A stretch of 64,000 nucleotides of DNA. It comes from Pseudomonadota bacterium (GTDB lineage Bacteria; Pseudomonadota; Alphaproteobacteria; Rhodobacterales; Rhodobacteraceae). The stretch covers positions 39,535 through 103,534 of the forward strand of contig JBCCZI010000003.1 in the NCBI GenBank assembly GCA_039187815.1, read 5' to 3'. Positions 1,451 through 35,330 of the stretch are shown in pieces. The position numbers and the translations under genes were made by a program. A model generated the notes under the pieces. That model searched no databases. It saw only the letters and a program-made list of their open reading frames with translations, and was not told the DNA's origin. The first letter of the stretch is position 1; every line of letters starts with the position of its first letter.

Positions 1451-2860
1451 ATGACCGACATCACGGGCCAAACGGGCACCCGCACCGAGACCGACAGCTT
1501 TGGCCCCCTCGAGGTCCCGGCGAACCGATACTGGGGCGCGCAAACACAGCGCTCGATCGGCAATTTCCCCATTGGCTGGGAGACGCAGCCCGTAGCCGTC
1601 ATACGCGCGCTCGGGGTTATCAAACAGGCGGCAGCCGAGGCGAATATGGCGCTCGGCACCCTGGATGCGCGTCTCGGCGGCGCGATCTCGCAAGCCGCCT
1701 CCGAGGTCGCGGATGGCAAGCTCGACGACAACTTCCCCCTGGTCGTGTGGCAGACCGGCTCGGGCACCCAGTCGAACATGAACGCCAACGAGGTGATCGC
1801 CAACCGCGCGATCGAGATCCTGGGCGGCACCGTTGGCTCGAAGGACCCGGTCCACCCCAACGATCACGTGAACCGCAGCCAGAGCTCGAACGACACCTTC
1901 CCCACCGCCATGCACATCGCCGCCGCGATAACGGCGCAGACGGTGCTGATCCCAGGGCTGCAAAAGCTGCACGGCGCGCTCGATGCCAAGGCCAAAGCCT
2001 TTGCCGAGATCATCAAGATCGGCCGCACCCACACCCAGGACGCGACCCCGCTGACCCTCGGCCAGGAGTTCGGTGGCTATGCCCACCAGGTGGCCCAGGG
2101 GATCATGCGCGTCGACCGGGCGCTGGCCGAGATCTACGAGCTGGCCCAAGGCGGCACAGCCGTTGGCACGGGGCTGAACACCAAGCCTGAGTTCGCCGAG
2201 CGGGTCGCCGAGGAGATCGCCAAGATCACCGGCCTGCCCTTCCAGACCGCGCCCAACAAATTCGAGGCGCTCGCCGCCCATGACGCGGTCGTCGAGATGT
2301 CGGGGGCGTGCAAGACCGTCGCGGCCTCGCTGTTCAAGATCGCCAACGACATCCGCTTCCTCGGCTCCGGTCCCCGTTGCGGGCTCGGCGAGCTTAGCCT
2401 GCCCGAGAACGAGCCCGGTTCCTCGATCATGCCGGGCAAAGTGAACCCCACCCAATGCGAGGCGCTGACCCAGGTCTGCGCCCATGTCATGGGCAATGAC
2501 GCGGCCATCGGCTTTGCCGGCTCCCAAGGGCATTTCGAGCTCAACGTCTTCAAGCCTATGATGATCTACAACCTGCTCCAGTCGATGCAGCTGCTCGGCG
2601 ATGCGGCGGTGGCCTTCACCGACAATTGCGTCGATGGCATCCTGGCCAACGAAACCCGAATCGACAAGCTGATGAACGAGAGCCTGATGCTGGTGACGGC
2701 GCTGGCCCCCGAGATCGGCTATGACAATGCGACCACCGTGGCCAAGACCGCGCACAAGAATGGCACGACCCTGAAGGAAGAGGCGATCCGCCAGGGCTTT
2801 GTCGATGAGGCGACCTTCGACCGGGTCGTCGTGCCGGCCAATATGATCGGCCCGCGATGA
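1451..2860 (+). CDS. fumC: Class II fumarate hydratase
   Basis: [58 protein letters not shown]. Confidence 0.97.
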
Positions 2861-3832: not shown

Positions 3833-4591
3833 CTAGCCGATGGTCGCGAGCACCGGGAAGGTCTCGATCAGCCAATAGGCCATGCGCTCGAAGGTGCCGG
3901 TGATCATCATTGCACCGACGACGACCAAAAGACCGCCCATCGCCCGCTCCACCAGCCCCATATGCCGCCGGAACCGTTTGGCCCAGCGCAAGAACGGCCC
4001 GATGAAGAAAGCCGCCAACAGGAACGGAACCCCGAGCCCGAGCGCATAGACCGCCAGCAGCGCCGTGCCCGAAGCCAGCGTCGCCTCCTGCGCGGCAAGC
4101 GTAAGGATCGCCGCCAAGATCGGCCCGATGCAGGGCGTCCAGCCAAAGGCAAAGGCGAGCCCGATCACATAGCTGGTGCCATAGCCGCCAGCCTGGGCCG
4201 GGCCATCCAACCGCGCCTCGCGGTTCAGGATCGGGATGCGCAGCACATGCAGGAAGTGCAGGCCCATAAAGATGATCACGCCGCCGGCGATCTGACCGAG
4301 GATGGTTTTGTTCTGGAGCAGGGTCTGGCCAATGATCGAGGCGCCCATGCCCAGCATCACAAACACGGTGGCCAAGCCGAGCACAAAAAAGCAAGCCGAG
4401 GTGAAGACCCGGCGCTGTGCGGCCTCGTCGATCTCGTCGCGCTCGCCCGATATCTGGTCGAGCGAGGTTCCGCCCAAATAGGCCAGATAGGGTGGGGCAA
4501 GCGGCAAGACGCAGGGGCTGAGAAAACTGATGATCCCCCCTGCAAAAGCCGTCGCGATACCGATCAGGCTGATCTCGATGCTCATCCCCAA
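3833..4591 (-). CDS. ccdA: Cytochrome c biogenesis protein CcdA (DsbD transmembrane domain)
   Basis: GIISFLSPCVLPL and FAFGWTPCIGPILAAIL Cys motifs; multiple TM helices. Confidence 0.92.
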   Translation of the reverse strand: MGMSIEISLIGIATAFAGGIISFLSPCVLPLAPPYLAYLGGTSLDQISGERDEIDEAAQRRVFTSACFFVLGLATVFVMLGMGASIIGQTLLQNKTILGQIAGGVIIFMGLHFLHVLRIPILNREARLDGPAQAGGYGTSYVIGLAFAFGWTPCIGPILAAILTLAAQEATLASGTALLAVYALGLGVPFLLAAFFIGPFLRWAKRFRRHMGLVERAMGGLLVVVGAMMITGTFERMAYWLIETFPVLATIG

Positions 4592-4668
4592 CTCCTCTGG
4601 CCCCTCACATAAGGCCTAGGCAGGCCTGGCGAACAGGGGCAGCTTGGCCACGGAGCCTCACGAATCCG

Positions 4669-5049
4669 TCAACCTCCCGCGGCAAGATAAGCTACGATAT
4701 GCTCGATTTGCTCTGCGGTCAGCTTTGGGCCGCCATGGAGCGGGTCGCTCGCCCCGTCGCGCTGTCCGGGCGCATAGGCCGGCGGCATAGCCGTATCGGG
4801 GGCCAGTACCTGCGGCGCGACGATCCACAGCCGGATCTCCCCATCGGCGAGAGCCGCCCCGGGAACGGGCCAACCGCCATGGCACGTATCGCAGCCCGCT
4901 GAGGCAAAGAGTCCCTTGCCGCGACGGGGATCGCCTGGCTCTCCGGTCAGGCTCTGGGCGATCATGCGTCCATCGGTGATGGTATAGGCGACGATCGGCG
5001 GCGGTGTCACGGCGTCCTGCGCCGCCGCGGGCAGCGCCAGCGCCAGCAC
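4669..5049 (-). CDS. SoxX-like monoheme c-type cytochrome (start uncertain)
   Basis: Signal-like LALALPAAAQ, SLTGEPGDPRRG, CDTCH heme motif, TAMP axial Met, LTAEQIEHIVAYL; only an in-frame GTG (5049) is available as start. Confidence 0.7.
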   Translation of the reverse strand: MLALALPAAAQDAVTPPPIVAYTITDGRMIAQSLTGEPGDPRRGKGLFASAGCDTCHGGWPVPGAALADGEIRLWIVAPQVLAPDTAMPPAYAPGQRDGASDPLHGGPKLTAEQIEHIVAYLAAGG

Positions 5050-5091
5050 CGCGCCCTTGAGTGCACTCGCCCGGCGCGCTACCTGCCAGCT

Positions 5092-5349
5092 ATGTCCGAG
5101 AAATCTCCCGCCCCTGAGCGGGCCGAGGAAGAGCTTGATGCCCGAGGTCTGCTCTGCCCCTTGCCCGTGCTCAAGACCCGCAAGCGGCTCCAGCCGCTCG
5201 CCCCCGGCGCGCTGCTGCGCGTGCTCGCCGACGATCCGGCCGCCCGCGTCGATGTCCCGCATTTCTGCACCGAACAAGGCCATGAGTTGGTCTCGACCGA
5301 AGACGGGCCCGACGGCACGCTGGTCTTCGTGTTGCGCAAGGCAGGCTGA
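5092..5349 (+). CDS. tusA: Sulfur carrier TusA family
   Basis: LDARGLLCPLPVLK...LADDPAA..DVPHFC. Confidence 0.9.
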   Translation: MSEKSPAPERAEEELDARGLLCPLPVLKTRKRLQPLAPGALLRVLADDPAARVDVPHFCTEQGHELVSTEDGPDGTLVFVLRKAG

Positions 5350-5356
5350 GGGCGCG

Positions 5357-6274
5357 CTAGTGGAAGGCGGCACAAGGATCCTCCCGGTCCGCGGGCGAGG
5401 CAAGCCAGACATAGTCATAGGGTTCCGCCCCGAGATCCTCGGCCGGGCTGTCGGGGGCCTCGGCCTCGCGCTGGCCAAGCGAGAGCACGCTCGCCCCCGG
5501 ATCGGCCTTGGCCAGATAGACCGGCACGCCGCGGTCCCGCCGGGCATGCCCGTTTCCGGTGATCAGAACCACAGGCCCGCCGCCGTTGGCCCGCGCACGC
5601 AGCGCCGCTTCGGCAAAGCGGGCATCACGCAGTCTTTGGGCCTCGACCATGGGTGCTGCCACTTCGGGGGGGAGTTGGTCGCAATGGGCGGCCACCATCT
5701 CGGCCTCAGCCGCTTGCTGTTGGGGCGGTGGCAAAGGCCGGTCGAGACCAAAGGCCGCTGCCTCGGACCCGAACACGCCCGCCGCGCCGCCTGCCATGGC
5801 CGAGCGAATCGCTGCGCGCGGCACACCGCCGCCGGCGATATAGGCGCCCTCCGCTGCCTCGAAGATCGGCCGGTAGAAGGCCCAATCGGGCCAGCCGAGG
5901 CGGTCCCAGCCGATGGCGGGGCCGATCTCGGCCGGCGCCCCGCCCTCGGTCAGGAAGACGGCGATCCCCTCCTCCGAAGCCTTCGGCACCATTTCGAAGG
6001 CGATGCCCGCTGGCGCGAGTGCGGCGACCAGCCAAGCCTGCCGGGCGTGATGCACCGGATTGTCGTGCCGCTCACCCAAGATGACGACATCCGCCTTTGC
6101 AAGCCGCTCGGTCAGCATGCGCCGCGAGATCGGGGCATCGGCGGCCACATCCCAGATCACACCGGACGGACCAGTCCCCTGGATCGGCGGCGGACCCGGC
6201 ATGCAGGCGGCAAGCAAGAGCACGCCCAAAAGCTGTGCGGATCGGATCACGGTGCTTGCCCTCCCCGGCGACAT
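5357..6274 (-). CDS. ChaN-family (haem-uptake, Tiki-like) lipoprotein
   Basis: Lipobox LLAAC; VILGERHDNPVHH..Q, FEM, AHC, AQRLRD, GNGHAR. Confidence 0.8.
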   Translation of the reverse strand: MSPGRASTVIRSAQLLGVLLLAACMPGPPPIQGTGPSGVIWDVAADAPISRRMLTERLAKADVVILGERHDNPVHHARQAWLVAALAPAGIAFEMVPKASEEGIAVFLTEGGAPAEIGPAIGWDRLGWPDWAFYRPIFEAAEGAYIAGGGVPRAAIRSAMAGGAAGVFGSEAAAFGLDRPLPPPQQQAAEAEMVAAHCDQLPPEVAAPMVEAQRLRDARFAEAALRARANGGGPVVLITGNGHARRDRGVPVYLAKADPGASVLSLGQREAEAPDSPAEDLGAEPYDYVWLASPADREDPCAAFH

Positions 6275-6324
6275 CAGGCCCCCGCACACAGCCTAGGCCG
6301 ACGTCTTGGCGATGCAAGCGACAG

Positions 6325-7167
6325 TCACGCGCCTTCCGTCGCAGTGCGAACCTCGGCGGTCATGGCAAGGCGTCCATCCGCGCCCCGAACCCAGAGCGCG
6401 AGGCCCTCGGCCCCAAGCCGCCCGCAGGTCTCAAACGGTTCGTCGGCCAGCACCGGCGATGTGGCGCGAAACTGGAAGGTAGCCGGCACGACACCCATAC
6501 GCCGCGCCTGCTCGAGCAGTAGGGTGGCCAGCAGCGGACCATGCACTACCAGCCCGGCATAGCCCTCGACAGTGCGCGCATACTCCTGGTCATAGTGGAT
6601 GCGGTGGCCGTTGAAGGTGAGGGCCGAGTAGCGAAACAGCACAGTGGCGTCGCAGGACCACGCCGAGGCCGCGTCTTCGTCGCGCGGCGCTTGGGGCGGC
6701 TGCGGACGCGGCGCCTCCGGCGGCGGGTCGGTCCGATAGACGATGTCCTGCTCCTCGGTGACGGCGAGTCCAATCGCGCCTGAGATCTCGTGGCGCACGG
6801 TGACGAAGCTGAGCGGGCCTTGGCGCCCCTGTTTGGCGGTGACCGCCGCGATGGTCGAGCGCTGCTCGGCCGGCGCGCCGAGCGGCAAGGGCGCGGCGAA
6901 CCGCAGACGCCCGCCAGCCCACATCCGTCGAGGCTCGGGGCATTTCGGCAGGAAGCTGCCGGTCGCCGGATGCCCATCGGGGCCGAGAGCGCTGCGGCGT
7001 GCCGCCTCGCGAAAATGCATCCAGTGCCAAAAGGGCGGCAGGGGGTCTCCGAGACCGGGTGCGGGGCGGTCGAGCTCAAGCGTCGCCACCAGAGCCTGGG
7101 CGGCGAACGGGTCCATCGGATCCGCGATCGTGCGGCTCCGGCCGATCCAGGCCTTCGGGTCCTCCAT
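6325..7167 (-). CDS. Double hot-dog acyl-CoA dehydratase (itaconyl/mesaconyl-C4-CoA hydratase, HTD2-like)
   Basis: RRMWAGG, EEQDIVYR, LFRYSALTFNGHRIHYD, LVVHGPL. Confidence 0.85.
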   Translation of the reverse strand: MEDPKAWIGRSRTIADPMDPFAAQALVATLELDRPAPGLGDPLPPFWHWMHFREAARRSALGPDGHPATGSFLPKCPEPRRMWAGGRLRFAAPLPLGAPAEQRSTIAAVTAKQGRQGPLSFVTVRHEISGAIGLAVTEEQDIVYRTDPPPEAPRPQPPQAPRDEDAASAWSCDATVLFRYSALTFNGHRIHYDQEYARTVEGYAGLVVHGPLLATLLLEQARRMGVVPATFQFRATSPVLADEPFETCGRLGAEGLALWVRGADGRLAMTAEVRTATEGA

Positions 7168-7205
7168 GGCTTGCTCCCTGCTCTATGCTCGGCTAGCCCT
7201 AGCGC

Positions 7206-7601
7206 ATGATCAAGGGACCGATCCAGAGCCTGGACCACCTGGTGCTCACCGTCGCGGATATCGGGCAAACCGTTGCCTTTTATCGCGACCATCTCGGCAT
7301 GCGCGAGGTGGTGTTCGGCGAAGGCCGCCATGCGCTCGCCTATGGCACACAGAAGATCAATCTGCACCAGGCGGGGCATGAGTTTGAGCCAAAGGCAACG
7401 CGCCCGACCCCAGGCTCGGCGGATCTCTGTTTTCTGGTCTCGGAGCCGGTGGCGGCATTGGCCGCGCGGCTGGAGAGCGCCGGGGTCGCCGTGATTGACG
7501 GCCCTGTGGCACGAACCGGGGCCACGGGGCCGCTCACCTCGATTTATGTCCGCGACCCGGACGGCAACCTCATCGAGCTGTCGAACCTCAGCGCCCCCTG
7601 A
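7206..7601 (+). CDS. VOC/glyoxalase family protein
   Basis: LDHLVLTV..FY...QKINLH...GSADLCF...SIYVRDPDGNLIELS. Confidence 0.9.
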   Translation: MIKGPIQSLDHLVLTVADIGQTVAFYRDHLGMREVVFGEGRHALAYGTQKINLHQAGHEFEPKATRPTPGSADLCFLVSEPVAALAARLESAGVAVIDGPVARTGATGPLTSIYVRDPDGNLIELSNLSAP

Positions 7602-7681
7602 GCGCGCACCACACGGAGCGTGCCTCGGATACGAGCGGCGCATTTGCCGCGGGTCCCTCTTCGCAGGGGCACAACCGCTTA

Positions 7682-7710
7682 TTGACACCCAAATGGGCCC
7701 TCCCTATGGT
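7682..7710 (+). promoter_or_regulatory. Putative sigma70 promoter of the atp F0 operon
   Basis: TTGACA (7682-7687), 17-nt spacer, TATGGT (7705-7710) upstream of atpI. Confidence 0.6.
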
Positions 7711-7748
7711 CCGCCGCGAACTCGCTGGAGTGTGCCGGCGGGCCTTGG

Positions 7749-8114
7749 ATGGGGTGTGTCATGGGCGCGTCAGACCGCCGGGGCAAAACCCTCGAGACGC
7801 TCGGCGACCGCATCGAGGCGGCGCGCGCGGCTCAGAGGCCCAAGCGCTCCAATTCGGGGGATGAATACAAGGCGGGATCTGTCGCCTGGAGAATGGTTAC
7901 CGAGCTCGTTGTCGGCGTGATGGTCGGCGGGGCAATGGGATGGGGGCTGGACAGTCTGCTCGGCACTTTGCCGCTCTTTCTACTCGTGATGGGGATCTTG
8001 GGCTTTGCCGCCGGCGTTCGCACCATGCTGCGCTCGGCCGAAGAGATCCAGCGGATGGAAACGGCCGAGGCCGCAGACCCAGATCCCAAGGCGCAGACGG
8101 AACGAGAGGGCTGA
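7749..8114 (+). CDS. atpI: ATP synthase protein I (AtpZ/AtpI)
   Basis: AWRMVTELVVG...GWGLD...P.FL...LGFAAGV; first gene of the F0 cluster; start could be 7760. Confidence 0.88.
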   Translation: MGCVMGASDRRGKTLETLGDRIEAARAAQRPKRSNSGDEYKAGSVAWRMVTELVVGVMVGGAMGWGLDSLLGTLPLFLLVMGILGFAAGVRTMLRSAEEIQRMETAEAADPDPKAQTEREG

Positions 8115-8118
8115 GGCG

Positions 8119-8880
8119 ATGGCGGCAGGCGAAGACGGCAGCTTCATCCATCCGATGGACCAGTTTCTGGTCAAACCGCTGTTCATCAGCGAGGGCAACA
8201 CTGGGTTGCTCACCATCACGAACTCGACCCTGTGGATGGCCATTTCCGTCGCGGCGATAGCGCTGTTGACGATCACGGGCACCCGCGGGCGGGCCCTGGT
8301 GCCGACGCGGACCCAGTCGGTGGCCGAGCTTCTCTACGGCTTTGTGCGCCAAACGGTTCAGGACGTGGTGGGCGACGAGGGGATCAAATACTTCCCCTAC
8401 ATTTTCACGCTCTTCACCTTCATCCTGTTCTGCAACATGCTGGGCATGATCCCTGGCAGCTTCACGCCGACCAGCCACATCGCGGTCACGGGCGTGATGG
8501 CGCTGACAGTGTTTGTCACGGTCACGGTGATCGCCTTCGTGAAGCACGGGACGCACTTCCTGATGTTCTTCTGGCCGATGGAGGCGCCCGGATGGCTGCG
8601 CCCCATCCTCTGCGTGATCGAGATCATCTCGTATTTCGTGCGCCCGATCAGCCATTCGGTCCGTCTTGGCGCCAATATGCTGGCCGGCCACGCGGTGCTG
8701 AAAGTGTTCGCGGGTCTCTTTGCCATGATGCTGGCCGGAGGGCTTGGCGCGCTGGCGGTGCTGCCGCTCGCGGGCATGGTGGGTCTGACCGCGCTCGAGT
8801 TCCTGGTGGCCTTCATCCAGGCCTATGTCTTCATGATCCTGACCTGCGTCTATCTCAACGACGCGCTGCATATGCATTGA
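8119..8880 (+). CDS. atpB: F0F1 ATP synthase subunit a
   Basis: HPMDQF, RPISHSVRLGANMLAGH, EFLVAFIQAYVF. Confidence 0.97.
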   Translation: MAAGEDGSFIHPMDQFLVKPLFISEGNTGLLTITNSTLWMAISVAAIALLTITGTRGRALVPTRTQSVAELLYGFVRQTVQDVVGDEGIKYFPYIFTLFTFILFCNMLGMIPGSFTPTSHIAVTGVMALTVFVTVTVIAFVKHGTHFLMFFWPMEAPGWLRPILCVIEIISYFVRPISHSVRLGANMLAGHAVLKVFAGLFAMMLAGGLGALAVLPLAGMVGLTALEFLVAFIQAYVFMILTCVYLNDALHMH

Positions 8881-28513: not shown

Positions 28514-28633
28514 GCGAGCGGGTTCTATGCCGCAGCCACAAACGCCCCGATGCGAGAGGGGGACGCGCATGTGCATCGAGATGCTCTCTGCCTCCGATAC
28601 CCGGCGTGAGAAGCGGTGCCGGGATCAGGAGCC

Positions 28634-29614
28634 ATGAGCGAGCCCCCCGCCGATCCGCGCACGACCGGCGATCCCGAGATCGCCCGGAAGTGGCTGCTCG
28701 CCTTCCAAAAGGCGCATCCCGACATCGTCGCGGCCACGCCGCCCAAGGGGCAGATCCGCGGCATCGATGCCTATGCACGGCCCGAACTGCTGCACCAGGT
28801 GGTGGCGCAGGCGCTGGAGATCCATCGCCGCCGCCATGGGCGCTGGCCGATGCCCCATCGCCTCGAGCGCACCGCCGATTGCTTCTTCGCCGACAAGTTC
28901 TTTGGCGCCTATCCCATCGATCCGAACCCGGCCGACAAGCTGAATGCCGCGGTCTGGCTGCCCGAGCCGCTGTCCGGGCTGGTGCGTGTGGCCGAGCGGC
29001 CGTGGGTGGCCGACGCGCCCGGTCTGCCTCCGGACGATTCGGTACCGCCTGGGCGCTGGATCCTGAAACTCGGCCTCGGCAATGCCACCAATGAGTGGAT
29101 CGACTGGCCGCCAAGCGCCAAAGAGCGCGCCCGTCTCGACGCCCTGACGTCCGAGTGGTTCCAGGGTCGCTACGGCGTCCGCTGGGGCGAATGGTGGTAC
29201 GCAATTGGCAAGCAGCGGCTGTTTCTCGAGCAGGACCTCACCGAGGCGCGGGCCGGGCGGCCAGAGTTCAAGCTGTTCACCCGCGGCGGGCGGGTCGTGA
29301 TGATCCGAGCCATCTTACACCGCAAGGCCCAAGGCCTGCCCAATGGCGAGCGGTTCTATGACGCCGCATTTCGGCCGATCAAGGGGCAGTCCGTCGGCTA
29401 TGCTCCGATGGCGAGCCCGCCGCCCGCCTCGGCCGAGCGCATGCTCGAGGCCGCCGCCGGCATCGGGCGCCATTTCAACCGCATGCGGGTCGATTTCCTC
29501 GACACCGGGGACGAGCGGCCCTGGCTGAACGAGCTCACAATCGGCGACGTGAACGCCCGGCGGATCATGACGCCCGATCTCGACTGCAGCTTCCGCCGGC
29601 TGATGTTCGAGTGA
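28634..29614 (+). CDS. TupA-like ATP-grasp fold protein (putative)
   Basis: ADK, WILK, LFLEQDL, EFKLF, MRVDFL..WLNELT pattern typical of ATPgrasp_TupA. Confidence 0.6.
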   Translation: MSEPPADPRTTGDPEIARKWLLAFQKAHPDIVAATPPKGQIRGIDAYARPELLHQVVAQALEIHRRRHGRWPMPHRLERTADCFFADKFFGAYPIDPNPADKLNAAVWLPEPLSGLVRVAERPWVADAPGLPPDDSVPPGRWILKLGLGNATNEWIDWPPSAKERARLDALTSEWFQGRYGVRWGEWWYAIGKQRLFLEQDLTEARAGRPEFKLFTRGGRVVMIRAILHRKAQGLPNGERFYDAAFRPIKGQSVGYAPMASPPPASAERMLEAAAGIGRHFNRMRVDFLDTGDERPWLNELTIGDVNARRIMTPDLDCSFRRLMFE

Positions 29615-29617
29615 GCG

Positions 29618-30031
29618 TCAGACCGGCTCCCGCTCGGCCAGGAAGCTGCGCAAATCGACCAGCCGTTTGCGCTCGAGCGAGACATAGACGAAGGCCATAT
29701 TGGTGCGCTCGGCGATCATCTCGCCGGGATAGGGCAGATAGCTGAGCTCACGCGAGCCGAAGGAGGGCGAGGCGCTGCCGACCTGCCAATCGCGGGTCAG
29801 CGTCACATCCACCAGCTTAAGCGACGGCCCGCCCGCCTCGTCCGCGATCTCGAGCGGCACGCCGGCGATGCGCAGATAGGCCGCCTTGTCGCGCGCCTCC
29901 TGAAACCCGTCGATAAACTGCGTCGCCAGCACCTGGAGATCGGCGGCCTGGTTCGCGGGCTCCATATGGCTGTGCAGATGGTCCGCCGCATGGTTGTGAT
30001 GGTGGTGATGGTGCGGATGATCATGGGGCAT
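29618..30031 (-). CDS. His-rich N-terminus hypothetical protein (candidate metal chaperone)
   Basis: MPHDHPHHHHHHNHAADHLHSH (12 His in 22 aa); last gene of the guanidine operon, overlapping the CMD gene. Confidence 0.75.
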   Translation of the reverse strand: MPHDHPHHHHHHNHAADHLHSHMEPANQAADLQVLATQFIDGFQEARDKAAYLRIAGVPLEIADEAGGPSLKLVDVTLTRDWQVGSASPSFGSRELSYLPYPGEMIAERTNMAFVYVSLERKRLVDLRSFLAEREPV

Positions 30032-30410
30032 CTTTGGCCTCCTGCTCCTCAAAGACCGCGAGGGCGGTGTTCAGCGCATTGATCGCGGACGGGAACCCGC
30101 CATAGAGCGCCATCTGCCAGATCACCTGGGCGATCTCGGTCTGGGTGAGGCCCGCCTTGAGCCCACCCTCGATGTTGACGCGCAGCTGCGGTGCGGTCTG
30201 CCCGCCCAGGGCCGTCAGCGCCGCGATCGTGGCGATGTAGCGGTCGCGGAGTGGCAGGCCCGGGCGGCTGTATTGCCGGCCATAGGCGAAATCGACCGCG
30301 CTCTCGGCCATGCCCGGCAACAGCGCGCCATAGCGGGCCTCGAGTGCGGCCTCCATCCCCGGATTGAGCTCGGCCACCAAAGCGCGGCCGCGGGCGAGGG
30401 TGTCTGTCAT
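30021..30410 (-). CDS. Carboxymuconolactone decarboxylase (CMD/AhpD-fold) family protein
   Basis: DFAYG..YSRPGL.LRDR...TIAAL.ALG...GL...EI...ALYGGFP. Confidence 0.82.
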   Translation of the reverse strand: MTDTLARGRALVAELNPGMEAALEARYGALLPGMAESAVDFAYGRQYSRPGLPLRDRYIATIAALTALGGQTAPQLRVNIEGGLKAGLTQTEIAQVIWQMALYGGFPSAINALNTALAVFEEQEAKDAP

Positions 30411-30415
30411 CGCGC

Positions 30416-31678
30416 TCAGCCCTTGTTCGACCAGCGATGGCCCTCGAACGCGCCGTGCGGGATGGTCACCGGCTTGTCGATCAGCGCCTTGTGCTTGCCG
30501 AGCGTGCCGGCCGAGACCATGGCGCCGAGCACATCGACGATCACCCGGGTCCCCATCAGCGCGGTGATGTCCGAGGTGTCATAGGGGGGCGAGACCTCGA
30601 CCAGTTCCATGCCGCAGATCCCTTGGGCTGCGACCTTGGAGGCGAGCGCCAACGCCTCGCGCGGCAGGAACCCACCCGGCTCGGGCCAGCCGGTGCCGGG
30701 CACAAAGCCGCAATCGATGCTGTCGATGTCGAAGGACATATAGACCATGTCGGCCCCGTCCCAGGCCATCTCGAGCGCCATCTCGGCGGTCTTGTCGATG
30801 CCCATCTTCTCCATATCGCCCATGGTGATGATGTTTGTGTTGCGCTCGCGGGCGACCTTCACCGCCTCACGCGGGACCTGCCAGCCGCCGATGCCCACCT
30901 GCACCAGGTTCTTGGCCGGTACGTTGGCCAGGTTGGTCGCGTGGAACCAGGGCGTGGTGTGCATGCGCTCGTCCAGGTCCTTTTCCTGGATATCCGCATG
31001 GCGGTCGAAATGCACGATGCCGATGGTCTTGGAGGTGCACTCGGCGATGCCGCGCACACAAGGAAACCCGATCGAGTGGTCGCCGCCGATCATGATGGGC
31101 AGCGAGCCCGAGGAGAAGACATGGCTGACCGCGCGCGAGATCTGGTCGAAGCTCTTCTCGAGATTGGCCGGGATGGTGAACACATCGCCCGCATCGCAGA
31201 GCGTCATCTGTTCGCGCAGATCGACCCCGATCTCGTAGTTATAGGGCGTGTAGAGAGCGGAGATCTTGCGCACCCCCTGGGGTCCAAAGCGCGTGCCCGG
31301 GCGATAGGTGGTGCCCCCGTCAAAGGGGATGCCGAGCACGGTGGCGTCATAGTGCCCGACCTCGGTGACGTCCTCGGTATAGGGCGCCTTGAGGAAGGTG
31401 TTGATGCCCGCGTAATGGGGCAGCTCGCCGCGCGCAAAGGTCGGGATCGACTTGTCCTCGATGCTGTCGGCGCCGGTCAGGCCCATGCGCAGCGCCCAGG
31501 CGCGCTCCTCGGCCCAGCGCCCCTCGGGGATCTCGGCCTCGGCGCGGGCTGCCTTCCAGCCCTGCAGTTTGGTGAGGTCCGGGTGGTGGGCGCGGGCCCG
31601 CTCGGGCCGGCCGAGTAGGGCCGAGAGATCGGCGCGCGGCGCGTGCCGGCGGGGGCAACGGGGGCGGGGATGGCTCAC
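30416..31678 (-). CDS. gdmH: Ureohydrolase, guanidine hydrolase (GdmH)-like
   Basis: SIPTFARGELPHYAGINTFLKAPY, TTYRPGTRFGP, GGDHSIGFP, HFDRHAD..EKDLDERMHT, SFDIDSID, GTGWPEPGG; downstream of a guanidine-I riboswitch. Confidence 0.82.
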   Translation of the reverse strand: MSHPRPRCPRRHAPRADLSALLGRPERARAHHPDLTKLQGWKAARAEAEIPEGRWAEERAWALRMGLTGADSIEDKSIPTFARGELPHYAGINTFLKAPYTEDVTEVGHYDATVLGIPFDGGTTYRPGTRFGPQGVRKISALYTPYNYEIGVDLREQMTLCDAGDVFTIPANLEKSFDQISRAVSHVFSSGSLPIMIGGDHSIGFPCVRGIAECTSKTIGIVHFDRHADIQEKDLDERMHTTPWFHATNLANVPAKNLVQVGIGGWQVPREAVKVARERNTNIITMGDMEKMGIDKTAEMALEMAWDGADMVYMSFDIDSIDCGFVPGTGWPEPGGFLPREALALASKVAAQGICGMELVEVSPPYDTSDITALMGTRVIVDVLGAMVSAGTLGKHKALIDKPVTIPHGAFEGHRWSNKG

Positions 31679-32457
31679 GGGGTCGGCTCCTCGGCTGGTT
31701 GAGAGATGGCGGGCTTTTGGATCAGGCCCTGGCCGGTCGGCAGGCTCAGAATCTCGAACCCGAGCTCCTCGGCCAACGCGTCGAAGGCCCGATGCTGCAC
31801 CGGATAGCCCTCATAATTGTAGTCATCGAGCACCACATAGCCGCCCGGGGTCATGCGCGGCCAGAAGTGGCGAAAGGCGGCAATCTCGGGCGCGGCGTTG
31901 TTCATGTCGATCGAGAGAAAGGCGACCGGGCCGGTCTCGACGCCCTCGAGGCTGGCGGGCACCGAGCCTTGGACGAAATGCACCCGCTCGAACTCGGCGA
32001 AATTGCGTTTGACCGCATCGATATTGGTGCTCTTGTAGAGGCCGAGGCGCCCGTCTTCGGCCTCTTCCGGCGTGACCAGCGCAGGATCGAGCCCCTCGAA
32101 GGTGTCGAACAGCCACGCCTCGCGGCCGAGCGCGTTCCAGCCGAGGCGCTGCATCACGGCGGCCATCAGGAACCCGGTGTTCACGCCGCACTCGACGAAA
32201 GTGCCGGGCAGGCGAGCGCATTGCTGCGCGGCCCACAGCACCACATGGAGGCGCCAGCGGATCTTGGGGTGGCCGGGGCTCGCCGCCTCGCCGCGCGCGA
32301 GTGCCGCCTGGAAGGCGGGGTCGTCGAGAAAGGCGGTCTGGTTCCAGGTGGCAAGCCGGTCCTCGTGGAAATAGCCCGGGCGGTACCAGTGCAGCACCAT
32401 GCCGAGCTTGCGCAGCAATCGTTTGGCCGGGCGCTTGATCGGTCGCAGATCCACCAT
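31675..32457 (-). CDS. TylF/MycF-family methyltransferase inside the guanidine operon
   Basis: WRLHVVLWAA, GTFVECGVNTG, LFDTFEG, VQGSVP, FLSIDMN, VVLDDY; GAGG RBS before ATG 32457; GTGA overlap with gdmH. Confidence 0.82.
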   Translation of the reverse strand: MVDLRPIKRPAKRLLRKLGMVLHWYRPGYFHEDRLATWNQTAFLDDPAFQAALARGEAASPGHPKIRWRLHVVLWAAQQCARLPGTFVECGVNTGFLMAAVMQRLGWNALGREAWLFDTFEGLDPALVTPEEAEDGRLGLYKSTNIDAVKRNFAEFERVHFVQGSVPASLEGVETGPVAFLSIDMNNAAPEIAAFRHFWPRMTPGGYVVLDDYNYEGYPVQHRAFDALAEELGFEILSLPTGQGLIQKPAISQPAEEPTP

Positions 32458-32470
32458 GGCGTGCCTCGCT

Positions 32471-33223
32471 CTATGATCCGGGCAGCCTCTGGAATGGGAT
32501 GCCTCCATCCCGAGCATCGATATCGTAAGTGATCGTTGCGCCATAGGCCTCTGGTGCATCGGGGTCCCAGCGCACCTTGTCAAAGACCAGAACGCGGTCG
32601 CCGAGCTTGAAGCCTTCGGAGAGGTCATGGGTCACCATAAAGACGGTCATGCCCGTCTCGGCGCGCAGCTCGAGCAAAAAGTCGTGCATGCGCAGCCGCG
32701 TGCCCGGGTCGAGCGCGCCGAAGGGCTCATCGAGCAGCATGACCTGGGGCCGGCCGGCCAGCGCCTGGGCAATGGCTAGGCGCTGCTGCTGGCCGCCTGA
32801 GAGCGCGGCGGGGTACTTCTCGGCCTCGGCGCCGAGGCCGATGCGCTCGAGCACCTCTTGGGCGCGGCCCGCCGCCGCCCGCCGGCGCCCGCCGAAAAAC
32901 CGGGCAAGCCATCCGCCCGCGCCCAGGTCCTCGGCCGCGATCAGATTGTCGCGCACGGTCATGTGGGGAAAGACCGAATAGCGTTGAAACACGACGCCCC
33001 GGTCGCGGCCAGGCTCGCGCGCCGGTGGCTGTCCGGCGATGCGGATCTCGCCCTGGCTCGGCGTCTCTTGGGCCAGCAGCAGGCGCAGGAAGGTGGATTT
33101 GCCGCAGCCCGAGGCGCCAACGATCGAGACGAAGGCGCCCTCCTCGACCTCGAGCGAGATGCCCTCCAGCACCGGGCGGAACCCATAACTGTGCACCAGG
33201 CCCTGGACCGAGACGAGGCTCAT
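32471..33223 (-). CDS. ABC transporter ATPase (NitT/TauT type; guanidine uptake)
   Basis: GASGCGKST, LSGGQQQRLAIA, LLDEPFGALDP. Confidence 0.9.
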   Translation of the reverse strand: MSLVSVQGLVHSYGFRPVLEGISLEVEEGAFVSIVGASGCGKSTFLRLLLAQETPSQGEIRIAGQPPAREPGRDRGVVFQRYSVFPHMTVRDNLIAAEDLGAGGWLARFFGGRRRAAAGRAQEVLERIGLGAEAEKYPAALSGGQQQRLAIAQALAGRPQVMLLDEPFGALDPGTRLRMHDFLLELRAETGMTVFMVTHDLSEGFKLGDRVLVFDKVRWDPDAPEAYGATITYDIDARDGGIPFQRLPGS

Positions 33224-34032
33224 CGCGTCTCACCCGCCCATGGATAGGCGCGCCGGGCATAGAGCCGCAGCCCTTGGTCGATCAGGAAGGCCAGCAGCGT
33301 GATCCAGACCACATAAGGCAGGATCACATCCATCGCCAAATAGCGCCGCACCAGGAAGATACGGTAGCCAAGGCCCTCGGTGGAGGCGATCGCCTCGGCC
33401 GCGATCAAGAACAGCCAGGCGGGGCCGAGCCCGAGCCGCACCGCCTGGACCAGCCGCGGCATCACCTGGGGCAGCACGACGCGCACCGCGATGGCCCAAC
33501 TCGAGGCGCCGAGCGTCTGGGCCTTGACCAGGATCTCTTGCGGGATCTCCGCCACCCGTTGCGCGATGTCGCGGATCATGATGGGCGCGATGCCGATGAC
33601 GATGAGCGCGACCTTCGAGACCTCCCCAAGCCCGAAGACGATGAAGAGGATCGGCAGGATCGCGAGCGGTGGGATCAGCGACAACGCGGCAAAGAAGGGC
33701 GACAGCCCGGCGCCCGCATAGGGCAAGAGCCCGCTGAGCACGCCAAAGACCAGAGCCGCCACCGTGGCGATGCCGACGCCGAGCGCCAGGCGCCAGAGGC
33801 TGGCGGCCGTGTCCTTCCACAGCAGGATGTCGCCCGAGCGGCGGTCGGGCTCGGAGGCCAAGCGCACCGCGGTCGTGCCGATCTGCTCGAGCGAGGGCAA
33901 GAGCTTGTCCGCCGGGTTGTCGGCCCGCCGGATGTCCGAGGCGACCGCATAGGCCAAGAGCAACAGCACGAAGGGCAGCAGGCTGAGCGCCAGCGCCCCC
34001 ACCCGGATGGGCTTTCGGTTGATCCACCGCAT
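33220..34032 (-). CDS. ABC transporter permease (NitT/TauT type; guanidine uptake)
   Basis: NPADKLLPS, IPPLAILPILFI, KAQTLGAS, IAAEAIAST.GLGYRIFLVRRY. Confidence 0.9.
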   Translation of the reverse strand: MRWINRKPIRVGALALSLLPFVLLLLAYAVASDIRRADNPADKLLPSLEQIGTTAVRLASEPDRRSGDILLWKDTAASLWRLALGVGIATVAALVFGVLSGLLPYAGAGLSPFFAALSLIPPLAILPILFIVFGLGEVSKVALIVIGIAPIMIRDIAQRVAEIPQEILVKAQTLGASSWAIAVRVVLPQVMPRLVQAVRLGLGPAWLFLIAAEAIASTEGLGYRIFLVRRYLAMDVILPYVVWITLLAFLIDQGLRLYARRAYPWAGETR

Positions 34033-34070: not shown

Positions 34071-35132
34071 TCAGAGCGCCCCGTCCGCAGCCATTTGCAT
34101 GTATTCGGTCGCGAAGCGGAACTTCACATTGTTCGCATCCCCCGTGGTCGAGCCATCGGGATAGGCGACGCCGACGAAATCCGCAGAGGGCGCGCCCTCG
34201 CCAAGGATCCCCTTGTCGAACAGGAACTCGGCGACGCTCACCATGGTCTTCGGCAGATCCGCGCCCTCGGTGAAAGCGACCGCATCGGCGGGAGCATAGA
34301 ACATCTCGGTCGAGGCGAGCTGCGCCTTGTATCCGGCGAGATCGGTGCCCGAGGCCTCGGCCATGGCGGTCAGAGCGGCCTCATCCCCCGCGGCCATCAG
34401 GGCCATGGTCTCGTACCAGGCGCCGACCATGGCTTTGCCAAAGGACGGGTTGGCCTCCAGCACCTCGGTGTTGACCACCATCAGATCGATGATCTCACCG
34501 GGGATGTCCGAGCTGTCGAAGACATTGGTGGCGTAGCCGCCCTCGAGAATCGTCGAGACCAGCGGGTTCCAGGTGACGACCGCGGCCACATCCGGCGTGG
34601 TGTAGGCCGCGACCATATCGGCGTCGGACGTGTTGATGACCGCCTCGAGATCGCGCTCGGACAGCCCAACGCTGTCAAGCCCGCGCGCCAGCAGATAGTG
34701 CGAAACCGACAGCTCCACGAGGTTCACTGGCTTGCCCTTGAGGTCGGCGAGCCCGCCCTCTTTGACCAGCACCGCGTCATTACCGTTCGAGAAGTCGCCA
34801 ACGATCAGCGCGGTGGTGTCGATGCCGCCACCCGAAGGGATCGAGAGGGTGTCCATATTGGTCGCCGAGACCCCGTCAAAGGCGCCGGCGGTGTATTGGT
34901 TGATGCTCTCGATGTAGTCGTTGATCTGCACGACCTCGATCGAGATGCCGTATTTGTCGGCCCATTTGTCGATGATGCCGCTGTCGGACATATAGCCCCA
35001 CGGCATCCAGCCCACATAGATCGACCAGGCGACGCGGAACTCGGTTTTCTCCTGGGCCAGCGCCGGGACGGCGGCGAAGGCCGCGGCGGCCACGGCAATG
35101 GCGGCGGTCAGGGATCGGAAGGATCTCGGCAT
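34071..35132 (-). CDS. ABC substrate-binding protein (family annotated as putative urea; likely guanidine)
   Basis: Signal peptide; AWSIYVGWMPW, NDYIESINQY, TNMDTL, DFSNGND, SVSHYLL, WNP, GEIIDL. Confidence 0.88.
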   Translation of the reverse strand: MPRSFRSLTAAIAVAAAAFAAVPALAQEKTEFRVAWSIYVGWMPWGYMSDSGIIDKWADKYGISIEVVQINDYIESINQYTAGAFDGVSATNMDTLSIPSGGGIDTTALIVGDFSNGNDAVLVKEGGLADLKGKPVNLVELSVSHYLLARGLDSVGLSERDLEAVINTSDADMVAAYTTPDVAAVVTWNPLVSTILEGGYATNVFDSSDIPGEIIDLMVVNTEVLEANPSFGKAMVGAWYETMALMAAGDEAALTAMAEASGTDLAGYKAQLASTEMFYAPADAVAFTEGADLPKTMVSVAEFLFDKGILGEGAPSADFVGVAYPDGSTTGDANNVKFRFATEYMQMAADGAL

Positions 35133-35215
35133 CAGGCACGCTCCCGCTCGTCTCGGCTGCGAAACGGGCCGACCGGCGGAGACGAGCCGGGCGCAGGTCG
35201 GTCCGGCGCAGTGCT

Positions 35216-35320
35216 CTCCCGGGCTTTTCCCCCGCCGTGTGCCCGACGCGAATTTGCGCAACCGGGTGTCGCCTCTCGGACCAGACGCTGCCGCGCAGCC
35301 GGAACCCTAGACGACCTGCG
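35216..35320 (-). ncRNA. Guanidine-I (ykkC-yxkD) riboswitch
   Basis: Minus strand CTAGGGTTCCGG...CTGGTCCGAGAG...ACACGGCGGGGGAAAAGCCCGGGAG, upstream of the SBP gene. Confidence 0.93.
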
Positions 35321-35330
35321 ATGAGGGCGA

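Follow-up and report, generated by a model that had tools for sequence, protein, structure and literature searches.

Within the window (the whole 64,000-nucleotide stretch of alphaproteobacterial DNA that was analyzed), a minus-strand operon carries, in order, a guanidine-I riboswitch, the binding protein, permease, and ATPase of a NitT/TauT-type ABC transporter, a TylF-like methyltransferase, the guanidine hydrolase GdmH, a protein of the carboxymuconolactone-decarboxylase-like (CMD) family, and a His-rich protein, referred to here as the partner of GdmH. The guanidine-I (ykkC) riboswitch forms the operon leader (35214..35321) and was matched over its full length by RF00442 with 79.1 bits, compared with a gathering score of 63 (E value, 3.8e-13). 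The substrate-binding protein (34071..35132), of the guanidine or "urea carboxylase-associated" type, matched TIGR03427 with an E value of 6e-157; its translation probably starts at the Met of MPRSF (~35132), because the longest open reading frame, which extends to 35261, would overlap the riboswitch. It is followed by a permease of the TauC/NitT type (33220..34032; PF00528 and NF007545) and by the ATPase (32471..33223; PF00005), which is syntenic across related loci. Between the ATPase and GdmH lies the TylF-like SAM methyltransferase (31675..32628, start codon uncertain; PF05711; E value, 4e-17), which is found in the window only, a full-length counterpart being present in none of 80 related loci; one possibility for its substrate is a methylated guanidine or a product. 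GdmH itself (30416..31678) was recognized as a member of the arginase family (PF00491; E value, 2e-76), and the CMD-family gene (30021..30410) was recognized by PF02627 (E value, 1.6e-13). The CMD gene is an optional insert that separates GdmH from the partner in 5 of the 80 related loci, with 77 to 80% identity. Its stop overlaps the start of the His-rich gene by 11 nucleotides, and in this way the Cys-free, PcaC-like CMD protein recreates the 11-nucleotide ATGCCCCATGA overlap that is seen from GdmH to the partner in 38 other loci.

The His-rich gene occupies positions 29618..30031, including the stop codon, on the minus strand (ATG at 30031, stop at 29618), and its translation gives a protein of 137 residues that begins with MPHDHPHHHHHHNHAADHLHSHMEP. 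The initial annotation had counted 12 His in the first 22 residues and had placed the gene last in its operon, and both statements hold. The remaining 115 residues contain no His and the whole protein contains no Cys; at a background His frequency of 2.2%, clustering of this kind has a chance probability of ~7e-15. A Shine-Dalgarno box, AGGAGG, was read directly 6 nucleotides 5' of the ATG (30038..30043, minus strand), and the family consensus starts with MPHD, indicating that ATG 30031 is the real start. An alternative start at TTG 30052 was ruled out by the position of the Shine-Dalgarno box and by the N terminus of the family. The reading frame is real, since more than 1,380 homologues with 60 to 84% identity were recovered from a search of 5.8 billion proteins; the homologues number about 1,400 to 1,700 altogether, every one of them labelled "hypothetical." Downstream, a convergent open reading frame finishes 3 nucleotides past the His-rich stop, leaving no space for an intergenic terminator, and a consensus scan for internal terminators returned just weak matches, all of them intragenic. 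The convergent frame (28616..29614, plus strand) encodes 332 amino acids with no match in Pfam or NCBIfam.

The hydrolase encoded upstream is a clear GdmH orthologue of nickel enzymes, bearing out the earlier expectation that the enzyme of this operon is likely Ni dependent. It aligned over ~353 residues to the solved Synechocystis GdmH (7esr/7oi1; E value, 1.5e-164) and to the Nitrospira inopinata guanidinase (9fek; E value, 1.8e-159), while the next arginase-family structures reached only ~1e-51, and the alignment showed that the metal-ligand motifs GGDHS, DRHxD, and SFDIDxxD are common to the window GdmH and the solved enzymes. Both solved enzymes contain nickel, with one Ni and one Mn per subunit in the crystal of the N. 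inopinata guanidinase (PMC11410670), and the characterized GdmH orthologues are Ni dependent (PMC11410670; PMC12704784). Close orthology to characterized nickel guanidine hydrolases and control by an RF00442 riboswitch together place the enzyme in GdmH. An N-terminal R-x-H-H-P-[D/S/N] motif, located before QGWK, was present in all 30 partnered GdmH sequences inspected, which came from both clades of the partner family described below. In the window GdmH, this motif reads HHPD and lies at about 31580..31591 (minus strand; residues about 30 to 33), and many Rhodobacterales GdmHs carry a second copy, SHHPxD, upstream of it. HMMER gave no alignment of the HHP segment of partnered GdmH to either solved GdmH. 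The HHP motif is a candidate hand-over or docking site for the partner.

The first 24 codons of the partner gene (29960..30031, minus strand) form a His-rich module that is predicted to be disordered on the basis of composition, pLDDT, and the family alignment and that bears the motifs M-P-H-D, (G)H-N, and H-L-H-S-H. In the alignment-based model, residues 1 to 16 had pLDDT values below 50, and no regular structure was assigned before residue 25. Across 129 family members, the region ahead of the domain contains 31% His, compared with 1.2% in the core, with a median of 12 His per 37 residues. The spacer, made up of poly-His, His-Gly, or His-Asp, has no fixed length, whereas three short motifs are conserved: the extreme N terminus reads MPHD in 62 members and MHD in about 32, with His as the second or third residue in 120 of the 129; GHN or HN is found in 124; and HLHSH is found in 67, or QWQxxH in 58 sister-clade members. 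Methionine aminopeptidase cuts Met1 before Pro and retains it before His, and by this rule the mature N terminus would take the form X-His-Asp in both clades, Pro-His-Asp here and Met-His-Asp in the sister clade. A His in the second mature position is characteristic of nickel sites such as the N-terminal Met-His-Glu of HypA, where Ni is held by the N-terminal amine and His2. The X-His-Asp of the partner would be formally like this site, by analogy and not by homology. Conservation of X-His-Asp, GHN, and HLHSH suggests a specific metal site, beyond a mere sticky tail. In several distant members, the His tract is found at the C terminus instead, a relocation that argues for selection acting on the tract itself. 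Some members with little or no His tract (P0132 being a confirmed case) still lie behind GdmH; the His tail is thus not universally required, and some function must reside in the folded domain.

This folded alpha+beta domain spans codons 25 to 137 (29621..29959, minus strand) and has no recognized fold. It is predicted to consist of two helices (residues 25 to 45 and 49 to 55), five beta strands (residues 71 to 126), and a C-terminal helix (residues 127 to 134). The model was built on a 129-sequence alignment (26 to 84% identity) and reached a mean pLDDT of 84, with values above 90 for residues 30 to 135; AlphaFold from the single sequence was unusable (pLDDT of 38). The window protein had no match in Pfam (E value of ≤0.01) or NCBIfam, 31 diverse family members had none in Pfam at an E value of ≤1, profiles from two alignments retrieved chance matches only from the PDB, and a fold comparison of the model with solved structures gave no match. 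Taken with the confident model, these searches agree with the compact, unrecognized domain that had been described from the sequence. Only 129 related clusters emerged when 1.84 billion cluster representatives were searched exhaustively with HMMER, and the family is therefore small and compact. Within the clade, core motifs such as WQVGTASPSFGSRELSYLP hardly vary. The invariant residues of the domain, F39, D48, P89, and R109, are not typical metal ligands, which makes a docking module the better fit for this domain. Since the domain lacks conserved His and Cys and resembles no known fold, nothing mechanistic ties it to metal transfer. Pfam and NCBIfam gave no DNA-binding or enzymatic signature for the partner, and literature searches found no description of it.

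Relatives of the partner were found in 390 genomes of the GTDB species-representative collection; among the matches listed, they are mostly Rhodobacterales, the closest being Albimonas with 82 to 83% identity. GdmH lies immediately upstream of the partner in 76 of the best 80 loci, and the remaining four comprise two without usable upstream sequence (L021 and L044) and two with gaps of 235 and 917 nucleotides (L036 and L058, respectively). Wherever the flank suffices among these 80, the gene order is binding protein, permease, ATPase, GdmH, and partner. In 99 of 119 loci, no more than 30 nucleotides separate the stop of GdmH from the start of the partner, and in 38 the two genes overlap by 11 nucleotides. 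A sister clade with ~30% identity was found in Ensifer/Sinorhizobium, Mesorhizobium, Ancylobacter, Inquilinus, and soil metagenomes, and here too GdmH is directly upstream, in 33 of 33 metagenome loci for which this side was sequenced. Single distant members are likewise located behind GdmH; a His-poor member on a contig of 38% GC and another whose His tail is C terminal each follow a GdmH C terminus. Between the two clades, identity is ~30% for the partner and ~73% for GdmH.

Co-occurrence was equally strict in sampled genomes. Among 401 evenly sampled Alphaproteobacteria, the nine genomes with the partner were exactly the nine with GdmH at an E value of <1e-200, and the two genes were adjacent in all nine (Fisher P = 1.5e-17). 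A second sample, phylum-wide and aimed at GdmH beyond the Alphaproteobacteria and at mutual exclusivity with GhaA/GhaB, contained four further GdmH genomes, each with the partner adjacent; no GdmH was found outside the Alphaproteobacteria in this sample, every match being alphaproteobacterial. The protein is very likely a GdmH-specific accessory of some kind. Only one GdmH-like gene without a partner was found, and its N terminus and neighborhood differ. This ureohydrolase (L096 of genome G084, 1631..2857, minus strand) has 57% identity, contains an internal His-rich insertion, THRDHSHMHD, lacks the HHPD motif, and adjoins a LysR regulator, in a genome without HypA. It is probably a different enzyme, and it may act on another guanidino substrate with the help of its own built-in His patch.

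To our knowledge, the sole means of loading nickel into GdmH is the HypA/HypB-like pair GhaA/GhaB. The initial annotation had noted an operon without hypA and hypB, and we indeed found neither gene in it; HypA was also missing from the whole window genome. Two of the G3E GTPase matches in that genome are UreG, and the other six are unclassified, with HypB possible among them. The UreG proteins belong to two separate urease operons, on contigs C17 (28054..33996) and C59 (15942..18988), each with its own UreG. In the class sample, HypA is missing from seven of the nine genomes with GdmH and partner, the window genome being among the seven, and in the other two it lies 17 kb and 3.5 Mb from the operon, never inside it. 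A HupE/UreJ nickel permease directly follows the GdmH-partner pair in Sinorhizobium fredii and in a Methylomirabilota MAG, and HupE was found near the pair in 6 of 44 metagenome loci of the sister clade. Across this Hyphomicrobiales/soil clade, the HupE/UreJ loci are L092 (8589..9173), L094 (2273..2860), L107, L109, and L110 (downstream), and L105, L106, and L120 (upstream). The permease is confined to the sister clade, being absent from the window, the window genome, and the 80 Rhodobacterales-type loci. As would be expected of a nickel metallochaperone, the gene context of the partner family combines co-occurrence with a nickel enzyme, probable co-transcription with it, judging by the tight or overlapping gene junctions, and linkage to nickel transport. 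In known nickel ureohydrolase operons, the order is hypA-hypB-hydrolase(s)-hupE (PMC11399263), and in cyanobacteria it is gdmH-ghaA-ghaB (PMC12704784); the partner therefore holds the genomic place of the HypA/HypB pair. For guanidinases without GhaA/GhaB, a 2024 study of comammox bacteria stated that the route of nickel loading is unclear (PMC11410670).

Collectively, these findings suggest, with a probability of roughly 0.6, that the partner is a dedicated nickel-delivery factor (metallochaperone) for GdmH that works without HypA/HypB and replaces the cyanobacterial GhaA/GhaB. Because its host bacteria mostly lack the known nickel-loading helpers, it is a strong candidate for a new factor of this type, for which we infer metal binding, nickel specificity, docking, and transfer. 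In the mechanism that we propose, guanidine would open the riboswitch, and GdmH and the partner would be made from one transcript. The disordered N-terminal module, with its variable poly-His reservoir and three conserved short motifs, would capture Ni2+; removal of Met1 would expose Pro-His-Asp, and the mature N terminus of the sister clade would be Met-His-Asp, both of an X-His-acidic form like the Met-His-Glu of HypA. The very conserved, His-free alpha+beta domain would then dock on apo-GdmH, possibly near the N-terminal HHPD motif, and Ni would pass into the binuclear site, securing Ni over Mn or Zn with no dedicated GTPase encoded alongside.

Several observations count against nickel delivery, among them the folded domain without a mechanistic tie to metal transfer and the His-poor members that still lie behind GdmH. 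The GhaA/GhaB, HypA/HypB, and UreE/UreG systems all include a GTPase, and unlike them the partner operon has none. In addition, HupE is present in a minority of loci and is absent from the window operon and genome. Nor is a helper for nickel loading strictly necessary, since comammox Nitrospira, for which no chaperone is known, still load some Ni (PMC11410670). A bolder form of the nickel-delivery reading, which we put forward tentatively and hold to be less likely than not, is that the partner is a single-protein, GTPase-free nickel insertase with a new fold, specific to binuclear ureohydrolases, whose X-His-Asp amine site would be convergent with the MHE of HypA, fed by poly-His, and docked on the co-evolved HHPD of GdmH. 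Such an insertase would be a further route of nickel delivery beside HypAB, UreDEFG, and CooCTJ.

The alternative that survives best, though we regard it as unlikely, is that the partner belongs permanently to the alphaproteobacterial GdmH holoenzyme as a small subunit, or helps to assemble or stabilize it, with the folded domain as the working part and the His tract serving as an auxiliary local metal buffer or being dispensable. The extreme conservation of the folded core with its nearly invariant motifs would suit such a role, as would the translational coupling or overlap of the two genes, the His-poor members that still lie behind GdmH, and the clade-specific N-terminal HHP motif that the partnered GdmHs bear themselves; heteromeric nickel ureohydrolases also exist, metformin hydrolase being an example (PMC11399263). 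Set against this, the GdmHs of Synechocystis and Nitrospira form homohexamers that are active with no subunit of this kind (PMC11410670). Divergence is also much faster in the partner than in GdmH (about 30% versus about 73% identity between clades), and the His tract is clearly under selection and relocates rather than vanishing.

It is improbable that the partner serves another metal (Mn, Zn, or Co) or has a metal-independent role, for example as a guanidinium-protective holdase or in the regulation of GdmH activity. In its favor, Zn, Co, and Cu can likewise be bound by His-rich tracts, no function can be read from the folded domain, and the N. inopinata guanidinase crystal has one Ni and one Mn per subunit (PMC11410670). 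Yet the characterized GdmH orthologues depend on Ni (PMC11410670; PMC12704784), and Ni is also the metal suggested by the linkage to HupE/UreJ. In addition, a His in the second mature position is typical of nickel sites, and the partner bears no DNA-binding or enzymatic signature. Least probable of all is an Hpn-like nickel store or buffer that sequesters Ni against toxicity when the pathway is induced, without specific delivery to GdmH: the N terminus with its 31% His, the variable length of the poly-His, and the co-operonic nickel importer of some relatives would fit it, but a general buffer would have no need to be tied directly and solely to one enzyme (as in 13 of 13 sampled genomes) or to keep a highly conserved folded domain, and it need not sit in the GdmH operon, given the two urease operons elsewhere in the window genome.

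As a dedicated nickel-delivery factor, the partner would do the job that is presumed for GhaA/GhaB (HypA2/HypB-like) with Synechocystis GdmH and for HypA/HypB with metformin and dimethylguanidine hydrolases, namely, bringing Ni into a binuclear site. It is related to these pairs neither in sequence nor in fold, and it is one protein, not two. Unlike HypA and GhaA, it has no PF01155 match, and with no Cys it cannot have a Zn site of two CxxC motifs. In contrast to HypB, GhaB, and UreG, it has neither a PF02492 match nor a P-loop; its model shows helices with a beta-sheet domain, and its operon provides no GTPase partner. UreE is similar in being small and cytoplasmic, with a folded domain, in serving one binuclear-nickel hydrolase, and in having, in many species, a dispensable His-rich, Ni-storing tail of variable length. 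However, the partner has no PF02814 or PF05194 match, no other Pfam or NCBIfam match, and no sequence or fold match in the PDB; moreover, UreE carries its tail at the C terminus, has its key Ni site within the folded domain, where the dimer halves meet, and works with the GTPase UreG and with UreD/UreF.

CooJ, SlyD, and the His stretch of HypB share the architecture of the partner, in which a folded module is joined to a disordered His-rich reservoir. Their modules (a coiled coil, an FKBP domain, and a G3E GTPase, respectively) were not detected in the partner, neither Pfam nor the fold comparison showing the FKBP-type peptidyl-prolyl isomerase domain of SlyD, and their targets, CO dehydrogenase and hydrogenase, also differ from that of the partner. 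Hpn and Hpn-2 of Helicobacter are alike in their very high His content, Ni binding, and N-terminal Met-x-His. Hpn, however, is His rich throughout, has no conserved folded domain, and is a general Ni store, whereas in the partner the His are held within ~24 residues ahead of a conserved 110-amino-acid domain and the protein is tied to a single enzyme.

Guanidine has come to be recognized as a widespread source of nitrogen, which GdmH makes accessible. The partner family is abundant in marine Rhodobacterales and soil Hyphomicrobiales, and nickel delivery by the partner offers a concrete, testable answer for a large bacterial group. Confirmation would extend the few known nickel metallochaperones by a new family and fold, would mean that a binuclear nickel site can be filled without a dedicated GTPase, and would supply a one-gene helper for heterologous nickel ureohydrolases in guanidine or metformin bioremediation and in engineered guanidine assimilation.

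The neighborhood of the GdmH-partner pair also includes urease genes in some relatives. In one alphaproteobacterium (L104, genome G398), a complete urease cluster from ureABC to ureG (3904..8142) converges on the GdmH-partner operon, which is a physical link of guanidine and urea breakdown. At a further locus, L111, ureG adjoins the GdmH-partner pair.
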